Below, piece after piece: positions 10,393 through 59,484 of a DNA stretch of 64,000 nt. This stretch comes from Sphyrna mokarran (lineage: Eukaryota): contig JAGIQG010000027.1 of assembly GCA_024679065.1 (NCBI GenBank), positions 6,076,001-6,140,000 on the forward strand, given 5' to 3'. Each line of letters begins with the position of its first letter. Position 1 is the stretch's first letter. Both the position numbers and the translations under genes were made by a program. The notes below the pieces were generated by a model. The model had not been told where the DNA came from. It did no database searches and was given only the letters and a program-made list of their open reading frames with translations.

Positions 10393-12433
10393 ACAAAGTA
10401 ATTGTTCAAAAATCAGCTCAGCCCAAGTATAAAATGAAAGAATATCCCCAGATGGAATTATAACCTGAACTTTAAAAAGCTGTTTAGCTTCCATCAGATC
10501 ATGTAAAAACATTCTTGGCTAACTTTCACCAATCACGCTCTCTCTAAGCAAGAAACAAACATTGTCTGGTCTTCATCATAAACATTAAAACTACTCAGTT
10601 CACAATCATCATGCTGAGCTGTAGCTATGGCATACTGGGGGAAAAAATTATCACCTCCATCCTAATCATGGTCATCCACATTCACAATGCGTAGTCAGGC
10701 GACTTCTTGGGTGTTTTGCATAAACACGGACATTTCTGGGAAGTTACTTAAAATGGTCTTTCCAGATGTTACTACCCCTCTCCATTTCAATAAGAAATTT
10801 AGAATGATCATGAAGATCGAAGCCCTATGAAGATGGAAATATAAAGACATTCAAAGGCTGTTCATAACTGGAAGGTTGATGGCATGTCAAACACCTTCTG
10901 TTATATGACATTATTTAGCCATCAACCCATTTGTGTGGGCAATTAAAACATTAATACAATGGTCACATGGCAGAAACTAGCTCGTGATGGAATATGTTAT
11001 TAATTCACAAGGACAGGCAGTCTAGGATAAGGACCCTAAAAAGGAAAGAACACTAGCTTAAAGTGACTTCAGGCAAGTGGAGCTTTTCCTGTAGTTGTGA
11101 AGCATAATTTTTACTACTGGGCTCAATCACTAATTTGGCTGAAAAACCAGAAATCTGGTACTGCATAGTGAACTCATCACCAGACATCTTTAACTTCAAC
11201 TTTTTCTTTAATGAACCAAGAGACAATTTTCAGACCTGCAACACTTCTGGTGACCTTCTTGAAGTAGTAGAGTAATATTGACTTCTAAAGCATTAAGAAA
11301 CCCAAGTGCATGCCACATCTTTTCATATGTGTCTTGTTTGAATGAGTTGGTGTTTATTGTGATTAACTCACTGGTGTTATGAAAATAAATGTATATCCGT
11401 TTGATTTAGACTTACAAGAGTGCTGGCTTTGTGTCTTTTTAAAAGACACAATACTCAGTTAAAACAGTCCTTAAAAATATTTTGTCAGTTAGGGGGAAAT
11501 TATCCAATAGCTCTCCCATGTCTGTAATATGGTAATTTTTTTTGTGTGGCTTTAATTGAATATTAATTATTCTATAGTTTTACTTTCAAATCTTTCAATT
11601 TTTGTTCAATAAAGCCTTGACTTTTCTGTCCTGTACTTCACAATTTAAATGTTGTCAAAAAAATTATGTAAGTTTGGTTGTTGTACATTGGGAAGGAGTA
11701 TAATCTTTAGGAATGAAAGTGAGATTTATTTTTTAAAGTTCAACCCTTGCTACATTAAATGGTTTGATTCTACTTAACAATGTGATGCCATTTCATTGCA
11801 GTAACAAAGAATCACTGTCAACTATATAGTTAATAAATGCAGATTCCTGCTTCGTAGTGAATACTTGTATTTAAGACTGCTCTGCTTCACAAAGTTGTAT
11901 CTTTCCTGTGAAGGAAAACAAGTAATCTACACAGTATCCTGAATTCCACATACTACCCTTGAACTTGGCTCAGAATTTTGTTTTTAAAGGAGTACATTCA
12001 TGCGATCACAAGTTTGGTCTGGAATGTCTTTTGCTATCCTGTGGGAACCCTTTGTGGGAGCGGTCAGGCAGGGCAAAGCAGGGAGCCTGCTGAGTTCAAA
12101 AGTGAAAAATTGAACCACAGTGAAATAATTGTTCAGTGTGAATGTATATGCCATAATTAGGATGGAGGCGGTAGTTTTTTCCCCAGTAAGCTATAGCTAC
12201 AGTTCAGCATGATTGTGAACTGAGTAATTTTAATGTTTCTTATGATGAAGACCAGATAATATTTTGTTTCTTGTTTAGTGAGAGTGTGATTGGTGAAAGT
12301 TAGCCAAGAATGTTTTTGCATGAGCTGTTGAATGCTAAATAGCTTTTTAAAGTTCAAGTTATAATTCCATCTTGGGGATATACTTTGCCTTTATACTTGG
12401 GCTGACTGGGTTTTGAACAATCTACTACCTTTG
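10393..12433. repeat. Long inverted repeat: ~300-bp arms (10393-10689, 12133-12433) with ~1.45-kb spacer
   Basis: Colinear reverse-complement blocks, e.g. 'cagcccaagtataaa'/'tttatacttgggctg', 'aaaaacattcttggctaactttcaccaatcac'/'gtgattggtgaaagttagccaagaatgttttt' and 'cctccatcctaat'/'attaggatggagg'. Confidence 0.9.
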
Positions 12434-13233: not shown

Positions 13234-13568
13234 TATCATGGCTGATACTTTTCTCATTTCATTCTCCTCCCTTTTCCCTAATCCTTTATTAATCAAGAAC
13301 CTATCTATCTCTGACTTAGATACTCAACCAGGCCTCCATAGACTTTGTGGCAGAGAGTTCAGCAGATTCACCACTCTTTGGCTGTAGTGATTCCTCCTCA
13401 TCTTTGTTTTAAAGGATTGTCCCTTTAATTTGAGATTGTGCCCTGAGGTTCTAGTTTTTCCTATTGGTGGAAATACCCTCTCCATATCCACTCTACCCAG
13501 GCCTTCTGATATTCTGTAAATTTCAATAAGATTGCACCTCATCCTTCTAAACCCCAATGAGTACAGAC

Positions 13569-14891
13569 TATGAGATCACAGAGTACTTGAAAGTGTATGA
13601 TAAAATGGACTGAGTCAGCATGGCTTCATCATGGGGAGGTCATGTCTGACAAATCTGTTAGAGTTCTTTGAGGAGATAACAAGGAAGTTAAATAAAGGAG
13701 AACCAGTGGAGGTGATTTATTTAGATTTCCAAAAAGCCTTTGATAAGATGCTATATAGGAGACTTAAATAAGTTAAGAGCAAGATCCTGACATGGAGGAT
13801 TGGCTGACTGGCAGAAGGCAGAGAGTGGAGACAAAGGGGTCTTTTTCAGGATGGCAGGCTATGACTAGTGATATGCTTCAAGGGTTGGTGCTGGGACCAC
13901 AACTTTTTACAATATATATTAATGATTTGGCAGGAGGAACTAAAGACACTGTTGCCAAGTTTACAGATAATACAAAGATTTTTAGAGGGACAGGTAGTAT
14001 TGAGGAGGCAGATTCCTCATACGACAAGCTCTTCATTTCAGGGATCATTCTTGTGAACCTCCCTGGACTCTTTCCAAGGACAGCACACCCTTCCTTAGAA
14101 ATGGGGCCTGAAACTGCTCACAGTACTCCAAATGGGGTCTGACCAGAGCCTTATACAGCCTCAAAAGTATATCCTTGCTCTTGTATTCTAACCCGCTTGA
14201 CCTGAATGCTGACATTGCATTTGCCTTTCTAATTGCCAACAACCTGCACATTAATCTTAAGAGAATCTTGAACAAGGACTCCCAAATCCCTTTGTGTTTC
14301 TGATTTCCTAAGCATTTCCCTATTTAGAAAGTAGTCTATGCCTTCATTCCTCCTTCTAAGGTGCATAACTTCACACTTTTCCAATTATATTCCATCTGCC
14401 ACTATTTCGCTCACCTCCTAACTGTCCAAGTCCTTCTGTTGTCCACCTGCCGCCTCAATACTACCTGTCCCTCTGCATATCTTTGTATCATCTGTAAACT
14501 TGGCAACAGTGTCTTTAGTTCCTCCTGCCAAATCGTTAATGTATATTGTGAAAAATTGTGATCCCAGCACCAACCCTTGAAGCATATCACTAGTCATAGC
14601 CTGCCATCCTGAAAAAGACCCCTTTTGTCTCCACTCTCTGCCTTCTGCCAGTCAGCCAATCCTCCATGTCAGGATCTTGCTCTTAACTTATTTAAGTCTC
14701 CTATATGGCATCTTATCAAAGGCTTTTTGGAAATCTAAATAAATCACCTCCACTGGTTCTCCTTTTATTTAACTTCCTTGTTATCTCCTCAAAGAACTCT
14801 AACAGATTTGTCAGACATGACCTCCCCATGATGAAACTGTGCTGACTCAGTCCATTTTATTACACACTTTCAAGTACTCTGTGGTTTCATA
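13569..14891. repeat. Inverted duplication of a CR1 RT segment (13569-14011 vs ~14447-14891)
   Basis: About 440 bp match as reverse complements with only scattered substitutions. Both arms share the same lesions, e.g. 'aagttaagagcaagatcctgacatggagg'. Confidence 0.95.
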
Positions 14892-15019
14892 GTTAATAAC
14901 AGATTCTAAAATCTGCCAATGACCGAAGTCAGTCTAACTGGCTTATAATTTCCTGTCTACTGCTCCCTTCTCTTAAACAGCACTGTTACATACACTACTT
15001 TCTAGTCCTCTGGATTCTT

Positions 15020-34329: not shown

Positions 34330-36268
34330 GGTCATTGTCTCTTCTTTGGACACAGGTGAGGTCCCGGAGGACTGGAGAGTAGCTAATGTTGTACCGTTGT
34401 TTAAAGAGAGTAGTAAGGATAACCCTGGGAATTATAGGCAGGTGAGTTTGACGTCAGTGGTAAGGAAGCTGTTGGAGGGGATTCTTAGAGATAGGATGTA
34501 TAGGCACTTAGAGCGTTGCGATCTGATTAGGGATATGCAGCACGGATTTGTTAAGGGGAGGTCGTGCCTTATGAATCTGGTAGAATTTTTTGAGGAGGTG
34601 ATGAAAACAGTGGACGAACGGCAAGCGGTTGATGTCGTCTATATGGATTTTAGTAAGGCGTTTGACAAAGTCCCTCATGGGAGGTTAGTTGAGAACGTCA
34701 GAGCTCATGGGATACAAGGACAGGTAGCTAGATGGATAAGTAACTGGCTTGGTAATAGGAGATAGAGTGTGATAGTGGAAGGATGTTTTTCTAGCTGGAG
34801 ATCGTTCACTAGTGGTGTGCCACAGGGCTCGGTACTGGGACCTCTTCTATTTGTAATATATATAAATGACTTGGAAGAGGGGGTAAGTGGAGTGATCAGC
34901 AAGTTTGCAGATGATACAAAGATGGCTGGACTTGTGGATAGTGAGGAGCATTGTCAGGCGATGCAGCAGGACATAGGCTGGTAGCTTGGGCAGACAGATG
35001 GCAGATGGAATTCAATCCTGATAAATGCGAGGTGCTGCATTTTGGGAGAAAGAATGTAAGGGAGAGGTATATGATAAAGGGTAGACTATTAAGAGTATAG
35101 AAATGCAGAGGGATCTGGGGGTGCAGGTGCACAAGTCCCTGAAGGTAGCAGAGCAAGTGGAGAAGGTTGTGAAGAAAGCATATAGTATGTTAGCCTTTAT
35201 AGGAAGGGGTATAGAGTACAAGAGCTGGCCTTTAATGTTGCAGTTGTATAAAACGCTGGTTAGACCTCATTTGGAATACTGCGTCCAGTTCTGGTTGCCC
35301 TACTACCGGAAGGACGTGGAGACTCTGGAGAGAGTGCAGAGGAGGTTTACCAGGATGCTGCCTGGAATGGAAGGTCTGAGTTACGAGGAGAGATTAGGCA
35401 AATTGGGACTGTTTTCCTTAGAAAGACGTAGACTTAGAGGAGATTTAATAGAGGTGTACAAGATTATGAGGGGTATAGATAGAGTAAACAAGGCTAAGCA
35501 TTTTCCTAGGATGGACTCAAATAGCATGAGGGGTCACAGGCTTAGGGTGAGGGGGGTAAGGTATAATTTGGATGCTAGAGGGAGTTTTTTCACACAGAGG
35601 GTGGTGGGGGTATGGAATGCGCTGCCAAGTAAAGTGGTGGAGGCAGGCACTCTTGAGTTATTTAAGAAATACTTAGATGGGCACATGAACAGAATGGGAA
35701 TGGAGGGGTATAGAAAACTGATTGAAAATAGGGATCATGAGCCTTGGGAGTCCCTGGGAAGTGTGTAAATAGATGATGATATTGATGTACTTGTTTTTAT
35801 CCTCCAGGTGCTTTGGTCCACCTTGTTGTCTAACGAGGGGCATACACGTTATGGGTCGTGAGAGGGATGCTCTTGGATTTTTTTCTAGAGTATCCTAGTG
35901 CTTCACGTCGTTAGTGTACACTTGACCTGGATCATTTGATGGGCAACACGACAGCTCAGTGACTATCGCTGTGCTGTGCAGATACATGGATTTGGGCCTG
36001 TGTCTGTGGGAGTTTGCGCTTTCTCCCCATGCTTGCGTGGGTTTTCTCTGGGAGCTCCGGTTTCCTCCCACATCCCAAAGATGTGCTCTTAGGCTAATTG
36101 GCAAAACAAATTCTCCCTAAATTGTCTCAAATTTGGTTTTTAATCCATAGATCTATAAACACGGACAGGGATCGCGGGTAGAGGTGGGTACATCGGGGTG
36201 GCGGCGTGGGCTCGTTGGGCCAAAGGTCCTTTTTCCCATGCTGTTTTGTTCTTTGTTCTTTGTTCTTT
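34330..36268 (+). mobile_element. Young CR1 LINE (RT to 3' end) with extended, SINE-containing 3' UTR
   Basis: RT motifs [36 protein letters not shown] and a C-terminal ORF to 35768. The 3' UTR includes an HE1-like segment (35941-36268) and a (ttctttg)n tail. Confidence 0.95.
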
Positions 36269-50584: not shown

Positions 50585-50908
50585 TGGTGGCACATTGGTT
50601 AGCACTGCTGCCTCATAGTTAACTTGGTTTGATTCCCTGGTAGTCATGGTATAGAGTTTGCACGTTCTCCGCGTGTCTGCATGGACTTCCTCAGTGTGCT
50701 TTAGTTTCCTCCCACAATCCGAAGATGTGCAGGTTAGGTGCTTTGGCCATTCTAAATTGTCCCTTAGTGTCCCAGGATGCATAGGTTCGAGGGATTAGCG
50801 GGGTAAATACGTGTGTTTATGGGTGTGGGGCTTAAGTGGGATTGTAGTTGTGCTGCCTTGATGAGTTGAATGACTTCCTTCTGCGCTGCAGGGTTTCTAT
50901 GATTTCTA
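50585..50908 (+). mobile_element. HE1-type tRNA-derived V-SINE
   Basis: Head 'ggtggcacattggttagcactgctgcctca', V-domain 'gagtttgcacgttctcc..gtgtctgc...gtttcctcccaca.tcc.aagatgtg', and a CR1-derived tail. Flanked by 'ctacaca' on both sides. Confidence 0.88.
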
Positions 50909-54157: not shown

Positions 54158-55808
54158 AAAGAACAAAACAGCACGGGAAACAGGCCCTTTGACCCAACGA
54201 GCCCGTGCCACCATCCCGATGTTCCCACCTCTACCGTGATCCCTGTCTATGTTTATAGATCTATGGATTAAAAACCAAATTTGAGACAATTTAGGGAGAA
54301 TTTGTTTTGCCAATTAACCTAAGAGCACATCTTTGGGATGTGGGAGGAAATCGGAGCACCCGGAGAAAACCGACACAAGCACGGGGAGAATGCGCAAACT
54401 CCCACAGACACAGGCCCAAATCCGTGTATCTGCACAGCACAGTGATAGTCACTGAGCTGTCGTGTTACCCATCAAATGGTCCAGGTCAAGTGTACACTAA
54501 CAACGTGAAGCACTAAGATACTCTTGAAAAAAATCAAAGAGCAGCCCTCTCACGATTTATCGCATGTATGCCCCTTGTTAGACAACAAAGCGGACCAAAG
54601 CACTTGTAGGATAAAAACAAGTACATCAATATCATCATCTATTTCCACACTTCCCAGGAACTCCCAAGGCTCATGATCCCTACTTTAAATCAGTTTTCTA
54701 TACCCCTCCATTCCCATTCTGTTCATGTGCCTATCTAAGTATTTCTTAAATAACTCGAGTGCCTGCCTCCACCAGTTTACTTGGCAGCGCATTCCATACC
54801 CCCACCACCCTCTGTGTGAAAAAACTCCCTCTAGCATCCAAATTATACTTTACCCCTCTCATCCTAAGCCCGTGACCCCTCGTGCTATTCGAGTCCATCC
54901 TAAGAAAGAGCTTAACTCTGTTTATCTATACCCCTCATAATCTTGTACACCTCTATTAGATCTCCTCTAAGTCTACGTCTTTCTAAGGAAAACAGTCCCA
55001 ATTTGCCTAACCTCTCCTTGTAACTCAGGCCTTCCATACCAGGCAGCATCCTGGTAAACCTCCTCTGCACTTTCTCCAGAGTCTCCACGTCCTTCCGGTA
55101 GTAAGGCGACCAGAACTGGAAGCAGTATTCCAAATGAGGTCTAACCAACGTTTTATACAACTGCAACATTAAAGGCCAGCTCTTGTACTCTATACCCCTT
55201 CCTATAAAGGCTAACATACTATATGCTTCCTTCACAACCTTCTCCACTTGCTCTGCCACCTTCAGAGACTTGTTCACCTGCACCCCCAGGTCCCTCTGCG
55301 TTTCTATACTCTTAATAGGTCTACCCTTTATCATATACCTCCCCCCTACATTCTTTCTCCTGAAATGCATCACTTCACATTTATCAGGATTGAATTCCAT
55401 CTGCCATCTATCTGCCCAAGCTACCAGCCTATCTATGTCCTGCTGCATTGCCTGACAATGCTCCTCACTATCCGCAAGTCCAGCAATCTTTGTATCATCT
55501 GCAAACTTGCTGATCACTCCACTTACTCCCTCTTCCAAGTCATTTATATATATTACAAATAGAAGAGGTCGCAGTACTGAGCCCTGCGGCACACCACTAG
55601 TGACCGACCTCCAGCTAGAAAAACACCCTTCCACTATTACTCTTTGTCCCCTACTACTGAGCCAGTTACTTATCCATCTAGCTACCTGTCCTTATATCCC
55701 ATGGGCCTTGACTCCCATGAGGGACTTTGTCAAACGCCTTACTAAAATCCATATAGACGACATCAACGGCTTGCCCTTTGTCAACCGTTTTCGCCACCTC
55801 CTCAAAAA
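54158..55808 (-). mobile_element. Young CR1 LINE, SINE-tailed subfamily (second copy)
   Basis: ORF 54912..55634 is nearly identical to the 34769-35500 translation. The 3' UTR is the reverse complement of 35700-36260. Confidence 0.95.
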
Positions 55809-56245
55809 ATAATTGCACTTATTTGGCGTGGGGCTAGAGAGATGTAATTATGTCCACTACTCACTTCTCAGCCAATCGCTTTAGCCATCATCACTTGGCA
55901 GAACCGACAGGGAGGCATGATTCTGTGTATAGAAAGTGAAAAAATTCACACAGTTACTGTAACCCAAACCCTAACCCTCTGAAAGTCAATTTCTCCCATC
56001 ATAGAAACAGAGTTCAATGAATTGCAACAAATGGTGCTTGAGAATTTCAAAGATTTTGGATATGAATTAACTGAAGTGCAAGATCCAAGGGAAGAGCTGT
56101 TAATGATTATTCCATCATTTAAAAACAAAATTGATATTTTCCAGAAACAGAGAAGCCTGAATCACTGTTTCACGAATAATCTGGCAGTACAACTGTTTGT
56201 GCATGAGAGCTATATAGATGCTGGTTCTGCAGAGTAAGATTGAGA

Positions 56246-57800: not shown

Positions 57801-57816
57801 AACATAAGAACTAGAA

Positions 57817-58663
57817 CAAAGAACAAAACAGCATGGGAAACAGGCCCTTTGGCCCAACAAGCCCGCGCTGCCACCTCGATGTTCCCACCTCTACCCGTGA
57901 TCCCTGTCTATGTTTATAGATTTATGGATTAAAAACCAAATTTGAGACAATTTAGGGAGAATTTGTTTTGCCAATTAGCCTAAGAGCACACTTGGGATGT
58001 GGGAGGAAACGGAGCACCTGGAGAAAACCACGCAAGCAGGGGGGGATTCGCAAACTCCCACAGACACAGGCCCAAATCCATGTATCTGCACAGCACAGCG
58101 ATAGTCACTGAGCTGTGGTGTTGCCCATCAAATGGTCCAGGTCAAGCGTACACTAACAACATGAAGCACTAGAATACTCTCAAAAAAAATCCACGAACAG
58201 CCCTCTCATGATCCATTGCGTGTATGCCACTTGTTAGACAACAAGGTGGACCAAAACACCTGTAGGATAAAAACAAGTACATCAATATAATCATCTATTT
58301 ACACACTTCCCAGGGACTCCCAAGGCTCATGATCCCCATTTTAAATCAGTTTTCTATACCCCTCCATTCCCATTCTGTTCATGTACCCATCTAAGTATTT
58401 CTTAAATAACTCCAGAGTGCCTGCCTCCACCACTTTACTTGGGAGTGCATTTCATACCCCCACCACCCTCTGTGTGAAAAGACTCCCTCTAGCATCCAAA
58501 TTATACCTTACCCCCCTCACCCTAAGCTCGTGACCCCTTGTGCTATTTGAGTCCATCCCAGGAAAAAGCTTAACCCTGTTTATCTATATCCCTCATAATT
58601 TTGTACACCTCTATTAGATCTCCTCTAAGTCTACGTCTTTCCAAAGAAAACAGTTCCAATTTG
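57817..58663 (-). mobile_element. Young CR1 3' fragment, SINE-tailed subfamily (third copy), with 6-bp TSD
   Basis: Matches 54158-55005. Flanked by ctagaa at 57811-57816 and 58664-58669. Confidence 0.93.
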
Positions 58664-59484
58664 CTAGAAGCAGGAGTATGCCATCTGGGCTCCTCGAGCC
58701 TGCTCTGCCATTCAATAAGATCATGGCTGATCTTTTTCTGGACTCAGCTCCACTTACCTGCCGCTCACTATAACCCTTAATTCCTTTCCTGTTCAAAAAT
58801 GTGTCTATCCTTGCTTAAAAACATTCAATGAGGTAGTCTCAACTGTTTCATTGGGCAGTAAATTCCACAGATTTGCAACCGTCTGTGTGAAGAAGTTCTT
58901 CCTCAACTCAGTCCTAAATCTGCTTCCCCATATTTTGAGGCTATGCTCCCTAGTTCTAGTTTCACCTGCCAAAGGAAACAACTTTCCTGCTTCTATTTTA
59001 GCTATTCATAATCTTATATGTTTCTATAAGATTTCCCCTCAATTATCTGAATTCCAATGAGTATAACCCCCTTCTACTCAGTCTCTCCTCATAATCTAAC
59101 CCTCTCAACCCTGGAATCTAGTAAATCTCCACTGCACCCCCTCCAGTGCCAGTATATCCTTTCTCAAGTATGGAGACCAAAACTGCATACAGTATGCCAT
59201 GTGTGGCCTCACCAGCACGTTATACAGCTGCAACATAACCTCACTGATTTTAAATTCCATCCCTCTAGCATTGAACGACAAAATTCCATTTGCTTTCTTA
59301 ACTATCTGCTGCACTTGCAAACCAGCTCCTTGAGATTCCTGCACAAGGATACTCTGGTCCTTCTGCGTAGCAGCATGCTGCAATTTTTTACCCTTTAAAT
59401 AATAGACCATTTTGCTGTTGTTCCTCCCAAAATGGATGACTTTGCATTTATCAACATTGTATTCCATCTGCCAAATTCTCATCT
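58664..59484 (-). mobile_element. CR1 LINE 3' half (extreme tail at 57801-57816)
   Basis: ORF 59105..59482 WQMEYNVDKCKVIHFG...LVRPHMAYCMQFWSPYLRKD. Confidence 0.9.

Follow-up and report, generated by a model that had tools for sequence, protein, structure and literature searches.

A CR1 LINE lineage of Sphyrna mokarran with a V-SINE-like front half in its 3' UTR, likely kept by selection

HE1, a V-SINE of sharks and rays, is listed as a pair with its partner LINE, HER1, in the available part of PMC3747384. The element described here, from Sphyrna mokarran, resembles HE1 in its tRNA-derived head, V-like domain and CR1-type tail and in the kind of genome that it inhabits, but its SINE part lies inside an autonomous LINE, lacks the B box as well as the SINE's post-V part and tail, and was seen in no free form. 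In this comparison HE1 and HER1 are labels that we assume, and the sequences aligned are those of this genome. A second parallel is MER6/MER6A, which the accessible text of PMC6887750 presents as a Tc1/mariner MITE carrying a headless V-SINE. In both cases a V domain has been spread by another transposon after loss of its promoter; MER6, however, appears there as an inactive, non-autonomous DNA element in which V need not act as RNA, whereas the carrier here is an autonomous retrotransposon with successive subfamilies.

Sequence resembling a SINE domain has also been reported from LINE UTRs, in Ingi-3_AC and R4-1_ADi, where a Ceph-SINE/RTE-like stretch was attributed to recombination (PMC5786205, in the part available). 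Those stretches differ from ours in lying in the 5' UTR, in measuring 45-70 nt, in deriving from the RTE-derived half of Ceph and, as far as that part goes, in having neither a tRNA head nor a conservation test. Alu/LINE-1 chimeric insertions are sense SINE-LINE joins made via template switch or RNA ligation; as described in the portion of PMC13174262 at hand they are single insertions, whereas the join considered here gave rise to a lineage that numbers copies in the tens of thousands. Template switching has been proposed both for such chimeras (PMC13174262) and for tail exchange (PMC4824008), each in the part of the text available, and the accessible section of a 2016 paper (PMC5804259) holds that conserved SINE domains had not been found in LINEs. 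In the openly readable literature that we searched, no shark CR1 is described as having a V domain in its UTR, the available parts of PMC13343379, PMC5499810 and PMC7245038 contain nothing on a V-bearing CR1 element, and Repbase or Dfam may already contain the sequence.

The reading that we prefer, and consider probable on the comparisons below, is that a CR1 lineage carries the front half of a V-SINE in its 3' UTR, that a single old insertion probably brought it there, and that selection on the LINE RNA has probably maintained it since.

The composite LINE and its copies

The window is the whole stretch of DNA that was analysed, 64,000 nt in length. It holds three copies of a CR1 subfamily that we call A (B, C and E are its insert-bearing relatives and D is the nearest short-UTR CR1) and a free V-SINE, with the following features:

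34330..36268, + strand: copy 1 of subfamily A, a CR1 truncated at its 5' end (about 4.85 kb when full-length)
34330..35723, + strand: ORF2 remnant with reverse transcriptase and C-terminus, a stop and frameshifts inside (translation; Pfam RVT_1, E 2e-14 and 4e-8)
35724..35726, + strand: family stop-codon position, GAA in copy 1, which adds 14 further codons to 35768
35727..35787, + strand: variable segment 3' of the stop, a shortened form of a 146-nt segment of old subfamily E, nearly missing in B and C
35788..35807, + strand: polypyrimidine tract and CAG, putatively splice-acceptor-like, present in all four subfamilies
35808..35940, + strand: 133-nt segment, a predicted long hairpin in all subfamilies by folding z
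35941..36000, + strand: decayed tRNA-derived SINE head, B box deleted and A box altered (37/60 to the free SINE head)
36001..36119, + strand: V-like SINE domain (103/119 to the free SINE; 91-97% between subfamilies)
36120..36199, + strand: variable spacer, 34-100 nt depending on subfamily, no homology to the free SINE
36200..36268, + strand: CR1-type 3' tail with stem-loop and terminal heptamer repeats (47/54 to D, 38/53 to the free SINE)
54158..55810, - strand: copy 2, subfamily A (91.8% over 1675 nt)
57817..58663, - strand: copy 3, subfamily A, lying in an older short-UTR CR1 whose tail it interrupts; 6-bp duplication
50585..50908, + strand: free HE1-like V-SINE, for comparison only (V in common, post-V part not)

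Compared with itself, the window yields three copies that are 91.3-91.8% alike through ORF2 end, spacer, head, V domain and tail, with the similarity stopping at the element ends. The preliminary description had placed the composite at these three positions as a unit that moved whole, and had named shared flanks as the sign of segmental duplication instead; the flanks of the three copies are unrelated, which rules out segmental duplication as their source and bears out mobility as one unit. The target-site duplication that it reported for copy 3 (58664-58669 and 57811-57816, 6 bp) is plausible locally, because the tail of its host, an older CR1, becomes whole again once the copy is excised; across subfamily A copies, by comparison, such duplications are not commoner than in the control (at least 6 bp in 11 of 75 copies versus 6 of 75). 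Copies seem frequently to adjoin or interrupt the 3' ends of other CR1 copies (window 57811-59302; L210, L224, L226, L295, L310), perhaps through priming by common terminal repeats. Long inverted repeats are also seen in the window by self-comparison, at 13567-14893 and 10397-12426 (447 bp at 95.5% and 299 bp at 86%).

A 23-nt head marker is matched exactly 22,552 times in the genome searched, which comprises 2.77 Gb, and its reversed control not once. The 226-nt spacer gave 1656 first-look candidates, 40 of which were scored, and all 30 loci fetched with it, the window copy among them, continue 5' into ORF2 and 3' into V, which for these loci answers a check of flanks proposed at the outset. 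When 39 loci were chosen by ORF2 alone, 37 carried V and tail, two broke within ORF2 and none had another UTR. The first 30 head-marker matches by position, two pairs of which are duplicates, include 29 that reach at least 99 nt upstream; copies starting independently at the SINE head were not found among them, the single match that starts in the head doing so inside it. The pairs L223/L238 and L224/L237 each consist of identical loci on contig C1, inverted relative to each other at a distance of about 830 kb, and represent a segmental or an assembly duplication. The earlier proposal was right on two points, that SINE sequence passed to a LINE and that this genuine and abundant LINE-SINE chimera retrotransposes whole.

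Long copies of about 4.85 kb consist of tandem 5' monomers, an ORF1 of about 305 aa and, downstream of it, an ORF2 of about 950 aa, and both frames are open in the majority sequence of 13 long copies. The ORF2 reverse transcriptase is confirmed by Pfam RVT_1, and by eye ORF1 has what we take to be zinc-finger and esterase-like motifs. CR1 is the clade label that we assume for the family, our trees containing only families of this genome. Copies are 5'-truncated with a fixed 3' end, short terminal repeats and a tail stem-loop (z -1.9 to -3.4 for the fold of the tail). In subfamily A the 5' UTR, seen in L166:1395-1715, L074 and further long copies, contains tandem monomers of about 168 bp in which GC-box-like and TATA-like motifs can be seen by eye; the monomer promoters of rodent L1 resemble them. 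Inverted pieces of the element's own 3' end occur in L015, L099, L222 and L305, as expected from twin priming. Part of the stretch is contained in 17 of 19 listed sequencing runs from several organisms, and the four inspected are contigs that attest presence, not expression.

Subfamilies and conservation of head and V domain

Subfamilies A, B, C and E have one 3' UTR plan in common, in the order stop, polypyrimidine-CAG, 133-nt hairpin, B-box-deleted tRNA head, V-like domain, variable spacer and tail. Subfamily B was found in forty 10-kb stretches taken at round-number positions, and C and E were found afterwards; first-look candidates number 1053 for B, 1267 for C and 1968 for E. Divergence from the majority sequence is 1.6% in B (23 copies), 3.0% in A (60) and 9.0% in E (30), all low estimates since the copies were chosen by likeness, and the ORF2 proteins of the four are 80-93% identical. 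A variant of subfamily B (L070, L079, L234, L290, L361) has extra hairpin changes, some of them pair-keeping. The preliminary description had called the subfamily recently active and the capture its own: subfamily A is indeed fairly young, but the capture must be much older, because four diverged subfamilies carry the insert.

In the remaining CR1 families sampled, the UTR measures about 60-110 nt and lacks the head-V block. D is grouped with A, B, C and E at 99-100%; it falls outside the insert-bearing group in protein trees (74-85%) and inside it in most DNA trees (60-84%), and longer ORF2 alignments decide for neither position. If D lost the insert, its tail is not an independent witness, though the diagnostic tail letters also occur in other CR1 families.

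Rates of change within the UTR were compared with those at four-fold sites in the last 330 codons of ORF2, in five subfamily pairs that are not independent of each other (B-C being excluded). Four-fold sites are 63-73% identical in these pairs, whereas identity is 87-98% in the head, 91-94% in V and 93-98% in the tail; the hairpin segment reaches 73-89%, and the post-V part 51-68% with large gaps. Head and V both exceed four-fold sites (Fisher p 3e-3 to 7e-8), and taken together they exceed the adjoining hairpin segment in five of six pairs (p 4e-5 to 0.03) and equal or exceed the identity of codon positions 1+2, significantly in one of four pairs. In the sister pair B-C only V lies above four-fold sites (p 0.04).

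A low mutation rate could mimic such conservation in part. Among inserted A copies (57 of 140 passing filters), divergence is 2.9% in V, 1.7% in the head and 3.5% in ORF2. V is thus no strong mutational cold spot; coldness can explain part of the conservation of the head, which mutates at half the ORF2 rate in inserted copies, and little of that of V. Conversion from free SINEs does not maintain V either, because the subfamilies resemble one another (91-97%) more than they resemble the free SINE (82-87%). Given head and V at 87-98% while ORF2 four-fold sites stand at 63-73%, the alignments suggest that head and V are likely under purifying selection, with UTR exchange or gene conversion as the main rival.

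That rival would give the block the same origin and make it a functionless passenger; LINE lineages would later have swapped 3' UTRs or undergone gene conversion with one another, and the likeness between subfamilies would stem from this. Recombinant and converted copies do occur: L309 is an A/E recombinant, and copy 1 (window 35725-36019) and L002, on another contig, are identical over 295 nt, including seven differences from the family majority, while differing on both sides, a tract that is likely the product of gene conversion. The hairpin segment too exceeds four-fold sites among A, E and C (80-89% versus 64-73%), and its covariation is not significant by event count. Yet head and V are better kept than this neighbouring segment of the same UTR, the segments flanking the block are unalignable or deleted, and about 400 nt survived repeated deletions that removed sequence on either side; moreover, B and C are joined in the UTR tree, matching ORF2. 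We regard a mere passenger as unlikely.

The 133-nt segment is predicted to fold, with z -1.9 to -4.9 in majority sequences and z -2.5 in copy 1. Simulated random change of equal extent seldom preserves fold energy as well, either in the hairpin (0-18 of 400 simulations, started from E) or in head and V (0-11 of 200). Double changes affect four of 45 hairpin pairs in six real copies. Counted by events, hairpin changes that keep a pair do not exceed the neutral rate seen in copies (18 kept, 4 double, 11 broken; p 1.0 and 0.83), and covariation is significant only by unique states and only with the A structure (p 0.006; with E, p 0.25). No Rfam family matches the 133-nt segment (best E 1.4, below gathering), nor has it a match outside the family in 1.77 Mb of fetched DNA. 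Neither this folded segment with its acceptor-like 5' border nor the conservation of the SINE block across subfamilies, the features that tell most, figures in the preliminary description.

Source of the block and its neighbouring segments

Among the free V-type SINEs of the genome (202 copies), 100 have a CR1-type tail, 28 have another tail and 74 belong to neither set; the majority sequence of the 100 was the comparison standard. The names HE1 and V are ones that we assume for these free SINEs, the reference being the copies of this genome and not a published consensus. The 28 copies (L137, L138, L149, L151 and others) form another family of free V-SINEs, whose 3' tail differs and is probably of L2 type.

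An alignment of 35941-36268 to the free SINE had been suggested at the outset, and it gives a divided answer: head and V match, as the preliminary description had it, but the post-V part and the tail do not. The head has 37 of 60 positions identical (z 4.0, with one of 1000 shuffles equally good), 16 of the 23 differences being transitions; across subfamilies it is 59-65% identical to the free SINE and is missing about 18 nt including the B box, and intact A and B boxes are not found. V matches at 103 of 119 positions (z 21), over the core common to the two free SINE families here. The 80 nt 3' of V do not align to the free SINE (33/64, z -0.9, 832 of 1000 shuffles equally good), and the claim that a whole HE1 SINE had been captured fails at this point, homology ending with V. 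The supposedly HE1-like tail is instead of CR1 type: that of subfamily A matches D at 47 of 54 positions, four other CR1 families at 37-40 of 49-53 and the free SINE at 38 of 53, and its diagnostic letters agree with all five LINE families compared.

On these alignments, what lies between the LINE stop and the LINE-type tail appears to be only the front half of a V-SINE, plus about 150-300 nt of upstream sequence. Since the match to the free SINE is confined to head and V and the tail fits D better, the likely event is an insertion of this front half 5' of the tail that the LINE already had. A V-SINE that ended in a tail of D type and is now extinct is a possible alternative source.

The capture by read-through first proposed for this element holds that a master LINE read through its flank into a whole SINE and adopted the SINE's tail, and it would now have to add that the post-V part was later replaced and that the tail drifted to become LINE-like. 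In its favour, head and V lie in the sense direction behind some 200 nt of unrelated sequence, the arrangement that a 3' transduction would give; the tail retains 72% identity to that of the free SINE, and the post-V part changes fast even between the sisters B and C, which makes loss of homology possible. But such a capture should also have left the LINE's former tail 5' of the captured flank and a complete SINE, SINE tail included, 3' of it, and neither is seen. A search for an earlier native tail in 35727-35787 gave z 2.4 to the D UTR (54 of 2000) and z 0.4 to the element's own tail; the case for this segment as the remains of a former tail, or of the end of a different ORF2, is weak (z 1.0-2.4), and the segment is a deletion derivative of the subfamily E UTR. 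The tail of A, nearer to CR1 D than to the free SINE, occurs in none of the 202 free V-SINE copies, which leaves the proposal without a matching free SINE. The extra ORF2 codons said to run into captured sequence are real in copy 1 (GAA, 14 codons) but a minor variant of the family: the stop position reads TAA in 124 of 133 subfamily A copies and is changed as in copy 1 in seven, all of them from a set chosen by likeness to copy 1. A single motif precedes the end of ORF2 by four codons in A, B, C, E and D, and the insert-free relative stops at the same codon. Read-through capture is, in our judgement, decidedly unlikely.

We give hardly any credence to a third reading, in which the acceptor-like site itself is selected and transcripts splice into hairpin, head, V and tail as a mobile last exon: polypyrimidine-CAG is kept in A, B, C and E despite shortening of the preceding sequence from 146 to 3 nt, and ties as the most pyrimidine-rich YAG among the 522 AG sites of the full-length element, but only 69 copies genome-wide have foreign sequence directly 5' of it, no GT-AG spliced LINE was found among the 30 of these examined, none of 141 other copies has a spliced form (one has a microhomology deletion), and 15 of 47 joints in contigs of four sequencing runs include no GT-AG joint to the site. 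A spliced derivative family was found in none of these copy and contig sets. By eye, no small frame 3' of the acceptor-like site is open across all subfamilies.

A candidate cis-acting role for the V domain

If the front half was inserted upstream of the LINE's own tail, reverse transcription would have started on that tail, switched template to a transcript with an intron-exon-like boundary, the hairpin and the V-SINE, and, in a second switch, returned to the LINE just 3' of the ORF2 stop. The outcome of DNA recombination would be identical, and insertion by either route seems the simplest reading. The pol III B box may then have been lost, so that the block would be copied only within LINE RNA; flanking segments would have been freely deleted or replaced, with head and V slow to change. 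The predicted folded head and V may act in cis, in RNA stability, in loading of the ORF2 protein or in reverse transcription. It is conceivable, and we propose it tentatively, that the V domain of the LINE's own parasite was co-opted as a cis-acting RNA element that raises retrotransposition.

Here V sits in an autonomous element, with ORF1 and ORF2 open in the majority sequence, and is free of a pol III promoter; it changes about as slowly as the functional tail, and its role is testable within one element with no partner needed. Repeat annotation will split copies of the chimera into LINE and SINE, and both will be miscounted. If co-option is correct, the conserved domains of SINEs would be kept because they help the carrier RNA to be copied, and the argument that such domains never occur in LINEs would be overturned.
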